NCBI GenBank assembly: GCA_049969855.1
Contig: JBMFOB010000015.1
Span: forward strand, 1-30,648
Reading direction: 5' to 3'
DNA length: 30,648 nucleotides
Source of the DNA: Candidatus Bathyarchaeia archaeon
Lineage (GTDB): Archaea; Thermoproteota; Bathyarchaeia; Bathyarchaeales; Bathycorpusculaceae
Part shown: positions 1,989-15,524 of the stretch, one piece after another
How the letters are laid out: every line of letters starts with the position of its first letter
Numbering within the stretch: position 1 is the first letter of the stretch
Translations under genes and position numbers: made by a program
Notes under the pieces: model-generated
Database searches by the model: none
Told to the model about the DNA's origin: nothing
What the model saw: only the letters and a program-made list of their open reading frames with translations

Positions 1989-4520
1989 ATGTTGACTGAA
2001 GAGCTTAAGGCTTCAGCAAAAAAGTATTGGAGCCAAGGTCTAAACATCGTTGTCTTAAATGGCAAAAAGCCATTGCATGAGTGGACCAGGTGGCAAACGG
2101 AAAAACAAAACGAAACAGATTTCGAGGCATTACCTTGGGAGAAAGCAGACGGCTTCGCCCTAATTTGCGGTCGACAACTCGCCAATGGATTATTTTTCGG
2201 AGCTATCGATTTTGACATAAAAAACTTGCCATGTGAAATCATTGAAAAAGGTAGGCAGGCATTAAAGAAATTTCCAATAACACAGATTGAGGAGACACCT
2301 TCAGGCGGGCAACATTGGATTTACCTAAGCCAAACAAAACCAAAAACGGTTAGCGCATATCATAACTCCGCTGCCTTAGAGCTTATTGGAGAGGGCAAAC
2401 TCTGCATAATGGCTCCGTCAGATGGATACAAACGCTTAAACGATAACACGCCAACAACTGTGCAAAACTTAGAGGAACTCTTTTATCGAGCTTTAAGGGC
2501 AGTTGGCGTGAAAATCCCAGTAGAATCATCATCTAAGCGTTTTTGGTTTAACCGTGAAGATTTAGCAAATCAGCAATATAAAGGTAAAAATCCTCCATGC
2601 ATAAGCAACCTTTTCAAGGGAACATGCGAGGGACAGCGAAACGATTACGCCATAAGAATTGCAAGCTTCCTAATCAACTTTAGAGGTTTAAACCCAAACT
2701 ATGCTTTCAAAAGGCTTAAGGAATGGAACCGATTTAATAGTCCACCACTTAGCGAGAAGGAGCTTGAAAACGTTGTTAAAAGTGCAGTTAAGGGCTGTTA
2801 TGTTTATGGCTGTGAAGACGATATCCTAAAGCGTAACTGCAACACTGAAGAGTGCCCAATTGCTCCAAAAACGAAACAGCTAACAGCTGAAGAGAAGGAA
2901 AAAGCCGAAGCCTTGCTTAAAGAACCACGTTTCTTGGACTACGTTGTGAATTATGGAAGGAAAAGGGTTCTCGGAGAAGATAACGCCCTAATACTCAATT
3001 TTGTAGCGTTATGTAGCGGACAAACACTATATCCAATATCCACGATTCTTTCTGGTTTTAGCGGAAGCGGCAAAAATGAATCATTAAGAGCTGTAAAGCC
3101 TCTAATTCCAGAAGAGTGGATTTTCGAATTCACAACATCAACACCTGAGGCGATAAAATACATCGGAGAAGATTTCAGCGGAACACTCATAATCTATGAA
3201 GCTGAGGGGGTTAAGGGCGAAACTGGAAGTTTGAGTCTGAGAGCAATAGGCGAAGGTAAGTCCATAGAGACGATTTACCCGATGCGGAACGAGCTAACGG
3301 GCAAAATGGAATTGGGCAAAGCAAAAACTAAGGCTCGCAATTTCATAACGACGCAAAGTGATTTAGACATACACCCAGATCTCTACCGCAGAGTTTTCAA
3401 ATATGAAATGGACCATAGCCTTACTCTTACTAAACGCGTTTTGGCAAAGAAGCTTCGCGATGCCATCCTCCCACCCAGCCTAAAAGACATTATTATGGAG
3501 AAAGAAAACTACACAACTTATAGTGAAGACGACTTTAAGAATGCTTTAAGGCTTAATGACTGGAAAGCCGAAGTGATAGTTTTTCCGCCCTCCAGCCTTT
3601 TACGCCTCTTAGCTTTGGCTGTTACAAAAGAACAGAAGGTTGCCCTACGCACCCATGTTGAAAAGATACTAAATTTTGTTCGGGTCTTAGCCCTAATAAA
3701 CCAGAAAAGGCGCTTAAGACTTAAAGTTGAAGGTAAAAGCTACGTCGTAGCCTCACCTGACGACTTCTATACAGCGTTAAATGTTTTGCAGACAACGATT
3801 AAAGAAACTGTAACAAGATTGGGAAAACGGCAACAAGAAGTTTTAAGCCTATTCGAAGAGAACGACACTTTAGATAAACACAAGGTTGCTGAAAAATTAG
3901 GCATTTCGACAGATACAGCTGCTAAAGCCTTAAAATCTCTCGCGAAAACGGGCTACCTTAAAGAAGACACAAATGCAAAACCATACGCTTACGAACTATT
4001 GCAAAAGGAGCCTAACCCGCTCGGAATTTTAGATAACCCCAACGGATATAACCTTTTTTGGCAAGAAAGCCTTGAAAGATTCCTAAAACACACCTCTACA
4101 ACTCTGCAAAACAAGGGCATAATTTTCCAAATTTTAAAACCAGAGATAGAAGACGTGAACCTTGTTCCCACCGAATTAAAGGCTGGGAACACGGAAATAA
4201 GCCAGAATCTTGAACTTCATCAAGAGAAAACAATATCACTCGACTACCAAGCTGCAGATGTGCCACCTGAGGCTGATATTGGCTTTCCCGCTGAAAACAG
4301 CCAAAAACAACTGGGATTTTCAAATATTCCGAGAGAGAAAAACCTGTTTTTGTGCCATAAGGTCCCTCCTGCGGAAAAGTGTGAACAGTGTGGACAGCTT
4401 GCCGTTGAGTGGGAGATAAAGACACCTGAAGGCGGCATACTGAGGCGGTGCGATCATTGCTTTTTCAAGCTACGCCAAAAAATGCCTAACACAGATTGGA
4501 CGGAGCTGAACAAACAATGA
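1989..4520 (+). CDS. Replication protein: bifunctional primase-polymerase + PriCT-1-like domain + P-loop NTPase (putative helicase) + winged helix + C-terminal Zn finger
   Basis: AIDFD and ETPSGGQH AEP motifs; GQRND..EWN..NSPPL PriCT-1 pattern; Walker A GFSGSGKN; Walker B LIIYE; HTH VAEKLGISTDTAAKALKSL; CEQC..CDHC. Confidence 0.88.
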   Translation: MLTEELKASAKKYWSQGLNIVVLNGKKPLHEWTRWQTEKQNETDFEALPWEKADGFALICGRQLANGLFFGAIDFDIKNLPCEIIEKGRQALKKFPITQIEETPSGGQHWIYLSQTKPKTVSAYHNSAALELIGEGKLCIMAPSDGYKRLNDNTPTTVQNLEELFYRALRAVGVKIPVESSSKRFWFNREDLANQQYKGKNPPCISNLFKGTCEGQRNDYAIRIASFLINFRGLNPNYAFKRLKEWNRFNSPPLSEKELENVVKSAVKGCYVYGCEDDILKRNCNTEECPIAPKTKQLTAEEKEKAEALLKEPRFLDYVVNYGRKRVLGEDNALILNFVALCSGQTLYPISTILSGFSGSGKNESLRAVKPLIPEEWIFEFTTSTPEAIKYIGEDFSGTLIIYEAEGVKGETGSLSLRAIGEGKSIETIYPMRNELTGKMELGKAKTKARNFITTQSDLDIHPDLYRRVFKYEMDHSLTLTKRVLAKKLRDAILPPSLKDIIMEKENYTTYSEDDFKNALRLNDWKAEVIVFPPSSLLRLLALAVTKEQKVALRTHVEKILNFVRVLALINQKRRLRLKVEGKSYVVASPDDFYTALNVLQTTIKETVTRLGKRQQEVLSLFEENDTLDKHKVAEKLGISTDTAAKALKSLAKTGYLKEDTNAKPYAYELLQKEPNPLGILDNPNGYNLFWQESLERFLKHTSTTLQNKGIIFQILKPEIEDVNLVPTELKAGNTEISQNLELHQEKTISLDYQAADVPPEADIGFPAENSQKQLGFSNIPREKNLFLCHKVPPAEKCEQCGQLAVEWEIKTPEGGILRRCDHCFFKLRQKMPNTDWTELNKQ

Positions 4521-5067: not shown

Positions 5068-6327
5068 GTGCAGGAGACTTCGAAAGCTGCGCCACGACTT
5101 AAATGTCCGCAATGCGGCTCAGAAAGGCTATATAAAGATGGCCTGCGCTATTTAGCTGAAGGCTCAATCATTCAACGCCATTTATGCAGAAACTGCGGAT
5201 ACCGCTTCAGCGAAACCACTTTTAACAATCCAAACAAGTCTCAACGTGTTGAGAATGTTGATGGGCAGATTTTAAATTCGCCAAATGCCATACCTACTAA
5301 CTGCCAAGGGAGCCGTGAGGCGTTAAGCGGAGCATCCACTGGCCAGCAAAGGCTGGTGCAAACCTTGGCCGAAGTGGAACCCCGAATTAGAGAGGCTCAG
5401 CGGGAGGGCACACTGCAATCAGCAGATATCAAGGGTCAACTAATCGAATATATCTGGTATATGAAGAAGAAGGGCTATGCCGAAAGCACAATTAAAGGCA
5501 GATTAAAACTCATAAAGAGACTAATAAATTTGGGGGCAGACTTAGGCAATCCTGAAGAAGTTAAAAGGATCATCGCGTTACAATCTTGGTGCGAAGGAAG
5601 AAAATCAAATGCATGTGACGCCTACACGACATTCCTTGGAATGCAGGGGAAATCATGGGAGCGTCCGTTTTACAAAGGCATACAGAAACTGCCTTTCATA
5701 CCTCAAGAGTCAGAAATCGACCAGCTTATAGCAGGCTGCAGTCCAAGAATGGCTTGCTTCCTCCAATTACTCAAAGAAACAGGCATGCGACCAGGAGAAG
5801 CATGGCAACTCCAATGGACAGATATAGACACAGCCACAAGAACCATTCGTATAACTCCAGAAAAAGGATCAAACCCAAGAATATTTCACATTAGCTCAAA
5901 ACTTGCAGCTATGCTTGAAAATCTCCCGAGAAAGTATGGGAACAGAATATTTTCAGCTCCAGGCATGCGCTTAGACCATCATAACGACCACTTCGTCCAG
6001 CAAAGAAAAAGAATAGCCCACAAACTAAAAAACCCGAGAATACTGCAAATAACCTTTAAGACATTCCGCCATTGGAAAGCCACAATGGAATATCACAGAA
6101 CAAAGGACATCCTACACGTCAAACACATTCTCGGCCATAAAAACATAAACAACACACTGATTTACATTACTTTAGCTGAAGAACTCTTCAAAGACAAGCA
6201 GGAATACATTTCAAAAGTTGCAAAAAATGTCAAAGAAGCCTGCGCCCTCATAGAGGCAGGCTTTGAATATGTAACGGGCGAATACAATGATGGAGGAAAA
6301 ATCTTTAGAAAGCCAAAATACACTTAA
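5068..6327 (+). CDS. Tyrosine recombinase/integrase with N-terminal Zn ribbon
   Basis: ETGMRPGE (R), EKG (K), KTFRH (H/K-x-x-R), ILGH and LIY (Tyr); N-terminal CPQC..QRHLCRNCG; converges on a tRNA 3' end. Confidence 0.95.
   Translation: MQETSKAAPRLKCPQCGSERLYKDGLRYLAEGSIIQRHLCRNCGYRFSETTFNNPNKSQRVENVDGQILNSPNAIPTNCQGSREALSGASTGQQRLVQTLAEVEPRIREAQREGTLQSADIKGQLIEYIWYMKKKGYAESTIKGRLKLIKRLINLGADLGNPEEVKRIIALQSWCEGRKSNACDAYTTFLGMQGKSWERPFYKGIQKLPFIPQESEIDQLIAGCSPRMACFLQLLKETGMRPGEAWQLQWTDIDTATRTIRITPEKGSNPRIFHISSKLAAMLENLPRKYGNRIFSAPGMRLDHHNDHFVQQRKRIAHKLKNPRILQITFKTFRHWKATMEYHRTKDILHVKHILGHKNINNTLIYITLAEELFKDKQEYISKVAKNVKEACALIEAGFEYVTGEYNDGGKIFRKPKYT
5239..5369 (+). promoter_or_regulatory. Putative internal promoter with operator and structured 5' leader inside the integrase ORF
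   Basis: TCTCAAC-GT-GTTGAGA palindrome 5239-5254; TTTTAAAT 5270-5277; stem GCCAAGG (5303-5309)/CCTTGGC (5363-5369) enclosing two hairpins and covering an in-frame TTG at 5365. Confidence 0.55.
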
Positions 6328-12045: not shown

Positions 12046-12426
12046 TTAGAATGAAGCTTCCAGTTTTTCTTTAACTTCCTTTATTTTTTTCTTAAGTTCT
12101 TCAACCTTTTCCTTGTCCTTTAATGCGATGTAGCAGTCTCTCGCATATTCTAAGGCGCTGACCCCGAACCTGTCAAAACCCTTATTGAAGGATAATTCTG
12201 CAGATTTAAGAAAATTCTCCACAGCCTTTTCATAGTCCTTTAGCATGTAGGCGCATTCGCCAGCCTTGAAAAGCATGGATGTGGCGTCAAAGAAGTTGTT
12301 GGCTTTGCGGTACAATTCTGAAGCTTGCAAAAATTTTTCCATGGCTTCTTTGTATTTGCCAGTTTCATAAAGCGTGTTAGCATCCTTGTGCAGTTTGACC
12401 GGGTCTTCTTTAACCTTCTCGCTCAT
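12046..12426 (-). CDS. TPR/SNAP-like helical repeat protein
   Basis: Repeated A..Y..G.Y.EA...F..A pattern. Confidence 0.8.
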   Translation of the reverse strand: MSEKVKEDPVKLHKDANTLYETGKYKEAMEKFLQASELYRKANNFFDATSMLFKAGECAYMLKDYEKAVENFLKSAELSFNKGFDRFGVSALEYARDCYIALKDKEKVEELKKKIKEVKEKLEASF

Positions 12427-12552
12427 AATGTCTCAACTCACATTTTGCTATTTATGTGCATGACACTTCCATTTAGGTTTTCCCGTTTCCAGCAACAGCT
12501 AAACAATTTAATATAATTGTAAATGTTAAAGAATTCAGCTGAAGGGAAATGT

Positions 12553-13278
12553 ATGAAAATTTGCGACGCTCACGTGCATCTGGGAAAGTCGGGACCTTGG
12601 CAACCATACATAAATCCCACAATCTACGTGGATGAGCTCATTCGTCTCTTTGACAAGTATAATGTTGAACAGGCAATAGTTTTTCCAAACCCAAATGTAG
12701 GCGATGAATACCCAAAAATGAACGATTACATAGCAGAATCCATTAGGAAACACCAAAAAAGGCTTATAGGGTTTGGACGTATAGACCCCCGAAGAGAAGA
12801 TGCCATAAAAGAGTTAATCCGTATAAAAAGTGGTTTAGGCTTGACTGGAATTAAACTGCATCCAATGGTGGAATGTTTCAGACCAGACCATCCCTTCTTT
12901 GAAAAATTTTTTAAGAAAACTAACGCCTTAAACCTTCCAATACTTTTCCATTCTGGAGATGGATTTTCTTCTCCAGGGTTTATCCTAAAAATTGCCAAGA
13001 AATATCCAAAACTTCCCATAATTCTTGCTCATCTGAGAGAGGCATCTGTTAATGCCTTAAGAGAATGCGAAAATGTTTATGTTGAAACCTCTGGCACCTT
13101 GCCAGATTTCATTGAACTTTCAGTTGACATAGATGAGAATAGAATACTTTTTGGCTCTGATGTTCCATACTATCGGTACCCAACCCAAATAGCAATTGTG
13201 GAGGCTGCACAAATTTCACAGAAAACTAAAAGAAAAATTCTCTATGAAAACTTCCAAAAATTATTCAGCCAAAAATAA
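12553..13278 (+). CDS. Amidohydrolase family 2 (TIM-barrel metallo-hydrolase)
   Basis: DAHVH, GIKLHP, LFHSG, LAH and LFGSDVP motifs; start ATG 12553 preferred. Confidence 0.9.
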   Translation: MKICDAHVHLGKSGPWQPYINPTIYVDELIRLFDKYNVEQAIVFPNPNVGDEYPKMNDYIAESIRKHQKRLIGFGRIDPRREDAIKELIRIKSGLGLTGIKLHPMVECFRPDHPFFEKFFKKTNALNLPILFHSGDGFSSPGFILKIAKKYPKLPIILAHLREASVNALRECENVYVETSGTLPDFIELSVDIDENRILFGSDVPYYRYPTQIAIVEAAQISQKTKRKILYENFQKLFSQK

Positions 13279-13290
13279 TGGAATGAAACT

Positions 13291-14691
13291 ATGACCCTCA
13301 AATGCATCAAATGCAACTCAAAATTTCCATATGCACCTTTGATGGGCAAATGTAAAAATTGTGGCGGACCCCTTGAGTACGATTTAGGTTTGCCAAGAAA
13401 ACGCAAAATCAAATTTTCTGGGAGCTTTAATTTTTGGAGATATAAAATTCTGCTTCCACCAGTTCATCATGAAATCAGCTTAGGCGAGGGCGGAACACCT
13501 CTCCATAAAGCCTCGAGACTTGCTAAAAGTGTTGGTTTGCGAAAATTGTATTTAAAAGATGAAACCAGAAACCCAACAAACTCTTATCGGGACAGAGCCG
13601 CAGCACTTTACGTATCAAATGCAGTAGACCTCAAACATGACACATTAATATGCGCATCAAATGGAAATTTAGGCGCTTCTTTGGCTGCATACTGCGCTAA
13701 GGCTGGACTAAACTGTCACTTGATTGTGCCAAAACTTGTGGACATTGGCAAATTAGCTCAAATGCTAGTTTATGACGCCACCATAGAAGAGTTTGGGGAA
13801 ATTTTAGACGATTCCATACGTAAGGCTGAAGCCTTAGCAAAAGAGATGAACTGGTATCAAGCCACAGCCGAATTAAACCCTTTGGCAATTGAGGCTCAAA
13901 AAACAATTTCATACGAAGTTTATGAACAGTTCGGCGTTCCAGACTACTTTATAGTGCCGATGGGAAGCGGCGGAACAATTTATTCAATATGGAAAGGCTT
14001 CAAAGAACTTAAAAATCTCAAAATAACAAATTCGCTGCCAAAAATGGTTGGCGTCCAACCAGAAGGAAGCCAATCCATAGTCAAAACACTGGCAGAGGGG
14101 CAATCACAAATAATGAAAATTTCAAAACCATCCACTCATGCCTTAGCCATTTTGGTATCCGAACCACTACAAGGCGAACTTGCCATAAAAGCAATAAAAG
14201 AATCAGATGGCTTAGCGTTAACAGTTTCTGACCAAGAAATTTTCTCAGCAGAACTTCAAATAGCAAAACTTGAAGGAATGTTCGCCGAACCAGCAAGCTC
14301 AGCCACAGTTGCAGCTCTAAAAAAGCTTGTTGAAACTGAAAAAATTGATAAACGCAGCAGCGTTGTTTGCCTAATCAGCGGAAGCGGACTTAAAGCCACA
14401 GACGTTCTTCACGCCTTAACAAAAAAACAGAAAACGGCAAGAGTGGGCTTGGAGCTAAGCACAAAAGAGAAAATACTTCAAGCCTTAAACAAAAAAGATG
14501 CATACGGTTATGATTTGTGGAAAAAATTTGGAAAAACGATGACAAGAGCCGCCATATATCAGCACCTAAACGAACTCTTAAGAAAGGGACTGGTTGTTAG
14601 TTACACAAAGAATGGGAAAAAATTCTTTAAAATCACAGAGCGCGGAAAAAGAGTTTTGCGAGCAATAAAAGATTTAAAGTTTATAACATAA
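13291..14691 (+). CDS. Threonine synthase-like fold-type II protein lacking the PLP lysine, fused to a C-terminal PadR-like winged HTH
   Basis: SLGEGGTPL, NPTNSYRDR (canonical NPTGSFKDR), ASNGN, PMGSGG, EPAS, SGSGLK; tail ILQAL..KDAYGYDL..IYQHLNEL..KGLV..FFKITERG. Confidence 0.88.
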   Translation: MTLKCIKCNSKFPYAPLMGKCKNCGGPLEYDLGLPRKRKIKFSGSFNFWRYKILLPPVHHEISLGEGGTPLHKASRLAKSVGLRKLYLKDETRNPTNSYRDRAAALYVSNAVDLKHDTLICASNGNLGASLAAYCAKAGLNCHLIVPKLVDIGKLAQMLVYDATIEEFGEILDDSIRKAEALAKEMNWYQATAELNPLAIEAQKTISYEVYEQFGVPDYFIVPMGSGGTIYSIWKGFKELKNLKITNSLPKMVGVQPEGSQSIVKTLAEGQSQIMKISKPSTHALAILVSEPLQGELAIKAIKESDGLALTVSDQEIFSAELQIAKLEGMFAEPASSATVAALKKLVETEKIDKRSSVVCLISGSGLKATDVLHALTKKQKTARVGLELSTKEKILQALNKKDAYGYDLWKKFGKTMTRAAIYQHLNELLRKGLVVSYTKNGKKFFKITERGKRVLRAIKDLKFIT

Positions 14692-14771
14692 TCTTAATGT
14701 TGCTTCCTTGTTTTAGTTTCCGATAGATTAAAATAGTAAAGTTACAACTAAACTATTCTTCTGGGATATCC

Positions 14772-15524
14772 TTGTCTTCACAAAAGACAAAAAGAAACAC
14801 TGTTCAATTAAGTGTTGCAGTTATTTTTATGGCGCTTGTCTGCGTGGCAACCATGAGTTTTACAGTATATGTGCCAAGTACGAAAGGTTTCTTTAACATT
14901 GGCGAAACCATGGTTTACATAACCGCGTTGCTTTTCGGTCCCCTTGTAGGAGCCTTCGCTGGTGGAGTGGGTTCAGCGTTTGCCGATGTTCTACTCGGTT
15001 ATTACTACTATGCACCAGCAACATTGGTGATTAAAGCATTAGAAGGAGGACTTGTAGGTTTTTTAGGCCGCAAAAAACATCTATTTTCTAAACTCCACAC
15101 AAAACGCGAATGGAAAATATTCACTCTCGAAATGGGAGTACTTGTTGGCGCTTTAATAAGTCTAATAGGTTTCCTGTATTACAGTGGCAGTGTAGAATTT
15201 TATTCTGGTTTTCCTCCCTCAGAAAACCCGACATCAACCCTTTTCATTCCGATGGAGTTTTGGTTAGGTCTTGGCATTTTTGTTGCGATATTGATGGCGG
15301 TTATTGCTTTTGTTTCTGAGCCAGAGTATGGATGGATGGTTATCTCAACAATTTTCGGAGGATTACTGATGGTTTTAGGCTATTTTCTTTACGAACAATT
15401 CATTCTTGGAGTTTTGGCAGTTGCCGAAGTTCCCGTGAACATTGGACAAATGACCGTTGGATTAATAATAGCCACTCCAATAGTTAAAATCATCCAACGC
15501 ACATTACCACAGATTAAAGGCTAA
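14772..15524 (+). CDS. ECF transporter S component
   Basis: ALVCVATM..VP.TKGFFNIGE..LFGP..GGVGSAFAD..APATLVIK pattern. Confidence 0.85.
   Translation: MSSQKTKRNTVQLSVAVIFMALVCVATMSFTVYVPSTKGFFNIGETMVYITALLFGPLVGAFAGGVGSAFADVLLGYYYYAPATLVIKALEGGLVGFLGRKKHLFSKLHTKREWKIFTLEMGVLVGALISLIGFLYYSGSVEFYSGFPPSENPTSTLFIPMEFWLGLGIFVAILMAVIAFVSEPEYGWMVISTIFGGLLMVLGYFLYEQFILGVLAVAEVPVNIGQMTVGLIIATPIVKIIQRTLPQIKG

Follow-up and report, generated by a model that had tools for sequence, protein, structure and literature searches.

The window, i.e., the whole stretch of DNA that was analysed, is 30,648 nucleotides (nt) long and comes from a Candidatus Bathyarchaeia archaeon (contig JBMFOB010000015.1, positions 1 to 30,648, forward strand). 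The gene in question is the open reading frame (ORF) 13291-14691, whose product was predicted as a pseudoenzyme resembling threonine synthase (ThrC) that is fused to a PadR-type winged helix-turn-helix (wHTH) domain. It is proposed here as a one-component regulator. Three genes are co-directional at this locus, i.e., an Amidohydro_2 gene, the ORF of 466 amino acids (aa), and the gene of an energy-coupling factor (ECF) S component. A sequence-only reading of this DNA had named the two neighbours as an amidohydrolase and an ECF S component, and both were borne out by Pfam. The features are collected in Table 1. The genome that carries the window comprises 1.28 Mb in 49 contigs and is 93% complete.

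Table 1. Features of the ThrC-PadR locus, in window positions
Feature	Position	Strand	Evidence
Amidohydro_2 (PF04909) gene	12523..13278	+	Pfam 2.7e-26; ends 12 bp 5' of the regulator gene
ThrC-like pseudoenzyme-PadR wHTH fusion, 466 aa, proposed one-component regulator	13291..14691	+	Pfam, fold prediction
Four-Cys zinc ribbon, N-terminal (C5, C8, C21, C24)	13303..13362	+	Translation; CxxC...CxxCG in the alignment consensus
PALP fold-type II PLP domain, residues 62-364, proposed ligand sensor	13474..14382	+	PF00291 2.9e-78
Codon 100, CGG = Arg, at the Schiff-base Lys position	13588..13590	+	Sequence
Flexible linker, residues 375-388	14413..14454	+	Sole segment with pLDDT <50
PadR-type winged helix, residues 391-465	14461..14685	+	PF03551 match at residues 395-457, 8.1e-9, 35.8 bits vs cut-off 27
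TATA-box-like A/T stretch, S-component promoter	14728..14735	+	Read from sequence; TATA role inferred from position
24-bp palindromic operator candidate	14733..14756	.	Palindrome finder; ends 15 nt 5' of the S-component start codon
ECF S component, PdxU/HmpT family (PF07155), proposed regulated target and B6-vitamer importer	14772..15524	+	PF07155 1.5e-27

The fold of the fused protein was predicted by AlphaFold2 on an 83-row alignment, with a mean predicted local distance difference test score (pLDDT) of 92.7 and a predicted template modelling score (pTM) of 0.82. Both domains were confident, and the linker at residues 375-388 was disordered. The nearest solved folds found by Foldseek were threonine synthases (6cgq_B, template modelling score (TM-score) 0.87 normalised by the target), and no solved fold spanning both the enzyme-like and the wHTH domains was among the structure matches. 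The C-terminal PadR-like domain of the sequence-only reading was confirmed by PF03551 above the Pfam cut-off. In the AlphaFold2 model, three helices are followed by a beta-hairpin wing and a long C-terminal helix, assigned by DSSP as helices 391-401, 406-416, and 419-431, strands 435-440 and 443-448, and helix 450-465. The four-Cys zinc ribbon was also found in Lys-bearing paralogues of the same genome.

In fold-type II enzymes, a lysine forms the Schiff base with pyridoxal 5'-phosphate (PLP) and is required for catalysis. The PALP catalytic domain of the window protein is present, and this lysine is absent from its S-F-K-D-R motif. NPTNSYRDR, in place of NPTGSFKDR of ThrC, was found at residues 94-102 of the translation, and residue 100 was confirmed as CGG, two base changes from AAA or AAG. 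In 2zsj and 6cgq, the residue aligned with Arg100 is the Schiff-base Lys. The closest 120 database homologues (72-95% identity) all carry Arg, i.e., 116 by pattern, 3 in printed stretches, and P0091. Because 120/120 of these homologues share the residue, Arg100 is not a read error, and the earlier judgement to that effect stands.

Lysine loss was counted in 150 representatives clustered at 50% identity and aligned together. Among representatives with a C-terminal extension, 72 were without Lys and seven kept it. Five of the seven (614-622 aa) carry a LeuA allosteric domain and no wHTH; therefore, only 2/74 wHTH fusions keep Lys. Lys loss thus co-occurs with the wHTH fusion, as had been put forward for checking (72/74 fused proteins without Lys vs 66/66 full-length unfused proteins with Lys). 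Three unextended representatives were without Lys, i.e., two fragments and P0246, and two further fragments stop short of position 100. Residue 100 in the whole C-terminally extended set was L in 19, R in 15, I in 15, K in 7, V in 6, T in 5, M in 4, and F in 3 proteins, with single S, Y, A, N, and H. The change had been described as Lys to Arg, and this holds in the closest homologues, whereas family-wide Arg is one of about twelve replacements and a few fused members keep Lys. Of the 83 sequences in the extended set, 74 had a PadR match in Pfam. In a set that includes the fused proteins of cultured Pyrococcus, Thermococcus, and Palaeococcus, the residue was Arg in 62/65, Lys in two, and unresolved in one.

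Two further architectures were observed around the ThrC fold. P0219, P0230, P0242, P0257, and P0262 are Lys-bearing ThrC homologues of 614-622 aa, and their C-terminal extension of about 140 aa was assigned to PF08502, the LeuA allosteric/dimerisation domain (5 members, best 1.6e-27). This ThrC-LeuA-domain protein is a different fusion, possibly an allosterically controlled enzyme. P0246, of 519 aa, has Val at the Lys position, no C-terminal wHTH, and about 115 extra N-terminal residues, and may be a variant with an extra domain at the opposite end.

The remaining cofactor motifs named in the sequence-only reading were kept, i.e., ASNGN at residues 122-126, PMGSGG at 223-228, EPAS at 333-336, and SGSGLK at 363-368. 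When 76 fused and 64 unfused proteins were compared, N94, P95, T96, S98, F/Y99, D101, R102, G125, N126, E201, K204, G225, G227, E333, T363, G366, and K368 were equally conserved in the two groups, and position 100 was the exception. No substitute Lys was conserved in the fused forms alone in this comparison; K204 and K368 are equally conserved in real enzymes. Position 199 also differed. It is Arg in 19/64 unfused proteins, and the commonest fused residues are F, L, S, and T. Ala199 of the window protein aligns with the Arg of NPYRIEGQK in 2zsj and 6cgq. This Arg of ThrC presumably binds the phosphate of the substrate, O-phosphohomoserine.

A canonical thrC elsewhere in the genome was another check set by the sequence-only reading. 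Three Lys-bearing paralogues were detected, which pass TIGR00260, NF006050 or NF005035, and the genome also has a TrpB-like protein. In the Bathyarchaeia loci L012, L014, L015, and L016, the fused gene is directly preceded, on the other strand, by the gene of a Lys-bearing unfused ThrC paralogue of 418-425 aa.

A tree of 49 fused and 16 unfused proteins was made by a quick maximum-likelihood search. Fused rows shorter than 380 aa (L017, L025) were left out, and the 16 unfused rows were drawn at random from 48. The fused forms fell on one side of a branch with 98% support in the Shimodaira-Hasegawa-like approximate likelihood ratio test (SH-aLRT) and formed two clades. Clade A (25 rows, 100% support) includes the window protein and has Arg or Lys at position 100, and in clade B (24 rows, 92% support) this residue is Ile, Leu, Met or Val. 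The six fused rows with Lys branch within the Arg rows, which requires at least three changes of state between the two residues. By record titles, the fused form occurs in Bathyarchaeia, Jord-, Prometh-, Hermod-, Thor-, and Odin-archaea, Nitrososphaerota, Thermococci, Methanomethylicota, Desulfurococcales, and Methanomicrobia, and it is carried by cultured Pyrococcus, Thermococcus, and Palaeococcus species. The bacterial matches in the homologue search were all unfused, and all keep Lys. Among control genomes of model organisms, NF004170, the model that spans the fusion, exceeded its cut-off in 0/14. For the class itself, 151 Bathyarchaeia genomes of at least 80% completeness were sampled and searched with the 79-aa wHTH tail. 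A strong match (E <= 1e-13) was found in 51 genomes, and a weaker match in a 486-520-aa frame in 14. Twelve of these 14 loci were fetched, as L092-L103 (G034 and G091 were left out), and all 12 were clade-B fusions.

The neighbours seen in the window were compared across 92 fetched loci, i.e., these twelve and L006-L085, the best 80 of 599 confirmed stretches matching one peptide pattern. An S-component homologue was found within 300 bp of the fused gene in 31/50 fused loci besides the window, and in 0/48 loci of unfused homologues. This linkage spans Bathyarchaeia, Asgard archaea, Nitrososphaerota, and Desulfurococcales, in three arrangements. The S component is downstream on the same strand in Arg-type Bathyarchaeia and Desulfurococcales, convergent in Lys-type Asgard loci and L018, and divergent upstream in clade B. 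Among the other fused loci of the 50, three have a divergent pdxS-pdxT pair, one has an S component 2.9 kb away, and three meet a contig edge just past the gene. The three pdxS-pdxT loci come from genomes chosen for nearness to PdxS matches (G085, G022, and G082), in which the wHTH-tail match lies within about 2 kb of PdxS and the order is pdxT, pdxS, and then the fused gene on the opposite strand. The pair of G085 (L092) was recognized by Pfam as SOR_SNZ (3e-100) and SNO (1e-54).

The sequence-only reading had linked the regulator to both the adjacent hydrolase and the vitamin-type transporter. The transporter part of this claim is supported by the 31/50 loci. As a conserved member of the system, the amidohydrolase was rejected, since its homologue adjoins the fused gene in L006 alone, 1/50 of the other fused loci; it is lineage-specific.

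Some fused loci have other neighbours. In L040, a Thermococci metagenome-assembled genome, the fused gene is followed by a 107-aa membrane protein without a Pfam match, and a cysteine-synthase-like gene lies further on. L068 and L072, of Nitrososphaerales, are without an adjacent S component or pdxST, and a SpoIIM-family membrane protein adjoins the fused gene of L068.

Candidate operators were found in the intergenic regions. In the window and in 12 other Arg-type Bathyarchaeia species or loci, a 24-bp palindrome lies between the stop codon of the fused gene and the start of the S component, with a consensus close to TAGTATAGTT-NN-AACTATACTA. The palindrome finder placed the site 0-81 nt 5' of the start codon, in one locus with the register shifted by 3 nt. 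In the window, the palindrome directly follows the TATA-like stretch, overlaps it by 3 nt, and precedes a TTG start. The window site scored 34.4 bits with a matrix made from the sites of 11 other species, the window being excluded. It was the sole position of at least 10 bits in the whole genome, and the best score in 20 shuffled genomes was 18.0.

The motif changes with the protein clade. Clade-B loci carry ATATATAAG-N6-CCTATATAT, a 9-6-9 palindrome, in the shared intergenic region. This pattern matches 10/14 loci, including L092 and L093 beside pdxS, and is absent from the rest of those loci (0 matches in 125 kb); the third pdxS locus, L094, has a near-match seen by eye. The palindrome was also found upstream of the fused gene itself in L095, L097, and L055. 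When five whole genomes were scanned, exactly one perfect match to the pattern was found in each of four, and the fifth had a match with one mismatch; all five sites lie at the fused gene. Away from it, matches with one mismatch occurred at about the frequency seen with the reversed control pattern. Five Lys-type Asgard loci have at least one perfect ATAAG-N6-CTTAT 5' of the S component (5/5), often two in tandem, and two Desulfurococcales loci have TAAAG-N6-CTTTA. Read by eye, the putative sites of all clades appear to have in common an A/T-rich arm with AG at its end, followed by six bases and CT.

The S component was assigned to PF07155 (97.1 bits vs a cut-off of 26.7). Its sole significant match in the PDB was 4hzu_S (1.6e-9), and no RibU structure matched at E <= 1. 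The matched structure is HmpT/PdxU2 of Lactobacillus brevis, from which the extracted substrate was pyridoxamine according to the section of the paper drawn on (PMC4860826). Both PdxU and PdxU2/HmpT are listed under PF07155/COG4720 in the part of PMC9997740 used here. Glu41 of HmpT aligns with a Glu in the window S component.

In the same genome, at 93% completeness, no match to PdxS, PdxT or PdxJ was found, and several PLP enzymes are encoded. An EcfA-EcfA'-EcfT cluster, i.e., two ABC ATPase genes and then a CbiQ/EcfT gene, was found on contig C3; CbiM/N was not found in this locus. The missing PdxS, PdxT, and PdxJ, the several PLP enzymes, and the presence of EcfAA'T make vitamin B6 uptake via the window S component plausible. 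Two more S-component genes of the PF07155 type were observed in the genome (C25:4668-5006 and C11:16050-16448). Both are without the operator, as the matrix search gave no other site in this genome. Across the class sample, PdxS was above its cut-off in 22/151 genomes, among them 11/11 genomes of one family (f11), and was not detected in 129/151, which suggests widespread B6 auxotrophy in Bathyarchaeia.

It is probable that ORF 13291-14691 encodes no threonine synthase but a dimeric repressor that senses PLP and controls B6 uptake or synthesis. Its proposed DNA binding, ligand, direction of regulation, and transported substrate would fit together as follows. Dimerisation would proceed through the enzyme-like domain. 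The predicted homodimer scored 0.82, whereas the best of 3 controls scored 0.01; the mark used was reached by 20/30 proteins solved as one-chain pairs and by 1/23 solved as single chains. The runs agreed in at least 73% of contacts, the partner pLDDT was at least 85, and the interface lay within residues 45-377. The two winged helices, on flexible linkers, would bind the 24-bp palindrome at 14733-14756. The site begins inside the TATA-like box and covers the point at which transcription of the S component is expected to start, and so the bound form should repress this gene by blocking initiation. The pocket is whole and its covalent Lys anchor is lost, and for this reason the dead enzyme domain is proposed to bind PLP or a close B6 form reversibly, with an occupancy that would follow the free B6 pool. 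The S component would act as a B6-vitamer importer of the PdxU/HmpT type, together with the shared EcfAA'T module of the genome. The idea of an enzyme scaffold turned into a one-component regulator, which came from the sequence-only reading, is supported and has gained a conserved palindromic candidate operator on the transporter promoter.

A wider proposal is held less firmly and is modestly favoured. It takes the family as an archaeal B6 sensor made from a disabled threonine synthase paralogue, in which PLP would be bound non-covalently and which is fused to the PadR wHTH. This protein would be an archaea-wide master local regulator that represses a PdxU/HmpT-type importer or pdxST via a TATA-overlapping palindrome in Bathyarchaeia, Asgard archaea, Nitrososphaerota, Thermococcales, Desulfurococcales, and others. 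An archaeal B6 importer, so far unassigned, would thereby be identified as well.

Several points weigh against these proposals. The link to PLP is indirect, as it comes from gene context and pocket conservation. His84 and Gln87 of HmpT are Lys and Glu in the window S component, and riboflavin importers also fall within PF07155. No B6 salvage kinase was found in the genome, in which only weak Phos_pyr_kin matches of 27 and 23 bits were detected, the better one ribokinase-like. PdxS occurs in 6/64 sampled genomes with the fused gene vs 16/87 without it, a comparison in which related genomes are not independent; the presence of the fused gene does not sharply track the absence of PdxS, and this is not decisive. 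Lys is retained in a few fused members (L018, L019, four Asgard loci, P0122, P0126, and P0295), and therefore Lys loss is not obligatory for the fused family. The homodimer score may stem from resemblance to the ThrC dimers already solved, and it carries no information on the winged helices. Twelve of the 50 fused loci lack both an adjacent S component and pdxST, although at least one of their flanks could be read (L024, L040, L043, L055, L068, L072, L084, L095, L097, L099, L100, and L103), and they include the cultured Thermococcales type, L040.

The operators also have a weak side. A single rule for the whole family was tried and rejected: a pattern of 5-nt arms and a 6-nt spacer matched 15/35 target upstream regions, as well as 53/1263 control stretches and 161/3500 shuffles, and it caught just the Arg-type Bathyarchaeia and the two Desulfurococcales loci. 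A search limited to perfect 5-6-5 palindromes proved too strict in most loci. Part of the operator conservation could be conservation of the promoter, since the arms are rich in A/T and overlap TATA-like sequence. A specific operator is nevertheless favoured by the fixed spacing, the uniqueness within genomes, and a motif that changes with the protein clade.

Some of these points would be met by the same kind of regulator on the S-component promoter with an effector other than PLP or B6, i.e., an amino acid, a phospho-amino acid, a PLP-amino-acid adduct or another vitamin, imported by the S component. The twelve fused loci without a B6-related neighbour, the two changed HmpT pocket residues, and the naming of PF07155 for riboflavin S components are in line with this. 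The structural match of the S component, however, was to HmpT and to no RibU. The parent enzyme binds O-phosphohomoserine, but Arg at position 199 is not among the commonest residues of the fused proteins. The pdxS-pdxT link in three genomes, with an operator of the same type as at S-component loci, is hard to explain without B6, and a non-B6 effector is considered unlikely.

It is far less credible that the protein is still an enzyme, i.e., a threonine synthase or another fold-type II activity with a DNA-binding tail, in which another residue replaces Lys. The cofactor pocket is intact, and the window protein is above the TIGR00260 cut-off (205.6 vs 167.1). NF004170 and most source annotations of the homologues carry the name threonine synthase. 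However, the window protein is below the cut-off of NF004170 (384 vs 421), the sole NCBIfam model spanning the wHTH. Moreover, Lys has been replaced by chemically unrelated residues, no alternative Lys is conserved in the fused forms only, and three Lys-bearing paralogues are present in the genome. That the gene is a decaying paralogue or an assembly artefact without function has nothing in its favour beyond the missing catalytic residue and can practically be set aside in view of the full-length open frame, hundreds of homologues with the same architecture, Arg in 120/120 close relatives, and a pocket and wHTH under visible constraint.

The surroundings of the locus showed other features. The amidohydrolase start at 12553 given in the sequence-only reading is the second Met of ORF 12523-13278, and it is a plausible start because the closest relative aligns from residue 11. 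Upstream, a 126-aa TPR/SNAP-like protein gene (12046-12426, minus strand) was found, which is kept beside the locus in L006, L007, L009, and L022; in the window, the amidohydrolase sits between this gene and the regulator gene. An 843-aa Prim-Pol/PriCT primase-polymerase gene (1989-4520) and then a phage-integrase-family recombinase gene (5068-6327) suggest that the first 6.5 kb of the window contain an integrated mobile element.

If the proposal of a PLP-sensing repressor is true, a missing archaeal B6 regulator, its operator, and a candidate archaeal B6 importer would be supplied together. It would also be a clean natural case of an enzyme becoming a sensor by losing its covalent cofactor link. 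The annotation needs correction, since hundreds of fused proteins carry the name threonine synthase and NF004170, a curated model that covers the fusion, bears it too; as a result, metabolic reconstructions of uncultured archaea contain inflated calls for the threonine pathway. As 129/151 sampled Bathyarchaeia genomes showed no PdxS, B6 uptake and its control may bear on dependence on other microbes and on cultivation attempts. Orthologues in cultured Pyrococcus and Thermococcus, among them P. horikoshii, P. abyssi, and T. onnurineus, make the regulator idea testable. Vitamin B6 regulators and transporters of prokaryotes are described as poorly known in the part of the literature cited (PMC9997740). 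In the literature searched, of which the coverage of subscription journals and supplementary tables was incomplete, no description of a ThrC-PadR fusion or of an archaeal PLP-responsive regulator was found.

To our knowledge, MocR/PdxR proteins are the only known PLP-responsive regulators, and in MocR proteins the Lys is retained and forms an internal aldimine. The analogy to MocR/GabR drawn in the sequence-only reading was made concrete: the genes linked to the family, pdxST and a PdxU/HmpT-type S component, are what the bacterial PdxR regulon contains. As far as the sections of PMC5320631 used here describe it, PdxR, a MocR protein, has PLP as effector, its regulon comprises pdxST and a pdxU-type transporter, and it is often divergent from pdxST, with its operator between the two; the same sections state that the MocR subfamily is absent from Archaea. 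On this description, the ThrC-PadR protein resembles PdxR/MocR in a PLP-enzyme-like sensor within a one-component regulator, in the links to pdxST and PdxU-type genes, and in a divergent layout with the candidate operator in the shared intergenic region. It differs in its sensor, which is fold type II and ThrC-like instead of fold type I and aminotransferase-like, and in its C-terminal PadR wHTH instead of an N-terminal GntR wHTH; no GntR match was found in the window protein. Unlike in MocR, the Lys is mostly gone in the ThrC-PadR family. The protein is thus no member of MocR/PdxR, because both domains come from other families and MocR is stated to be absent from Archaea.

Compared with ThrC (TIGR00260; 2zsj, 6cgq, and 1v7c), the fold is alike (TM-score 0.83-0.87 normalised by the target, 34-37% identity), as are the pocket motifs, the dimer interface region, and the zinc ribbon of archaeal paralogues. 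Unlike ThrC, the fused protein has no Schiff-base Lys and no Arg199, a linker and wHTH are added, and its context is B6 supply and not threonine biosynthesis. With PadR regulators it shares the PF03551 wHTH above the cut-off, with three helices, wing, and C-terminal helix, and candidate palindromic operators. Classical PadR proteins are about 110-180 aa and sense their ligand within the wHTH dimer or a short C-terminal domain, whereas here an enzyme-like domain of 370 aa is N-terminal and supplies the predicted dimer interface. The window S component is like HmpT/PdxU2 and PdxU in belonging to PF07155, with Glu41 of HmpT kept as Glu. It differs from HmpT in its length of about 250 aa vs 166 aa, in an insertion that separates the matched N- and C-terminal parts, and in the His84/Gln87 to Lys/Glu changes.

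The archaeal regulators ThiR and RbkR combine a domain related to a vitamin-pathway enzyme with a DNA-binding domain and control the uptake or synthesis genes of that vitamin. The ThrC-PadR protein is similar in its enzyme-derived domain, in the fusion to a DNA-binding domain, and in the proposed control of vitamin supply. The vitamins and folds are different, and the sensor here is derived from an enzyme using the vitamin as cofactor, not from a biosynthetic enzyme. Enzyme-derived sensors fused to a DNA-binding domain are thus already known as a kind, to which ThrC-PadR would add a further one.

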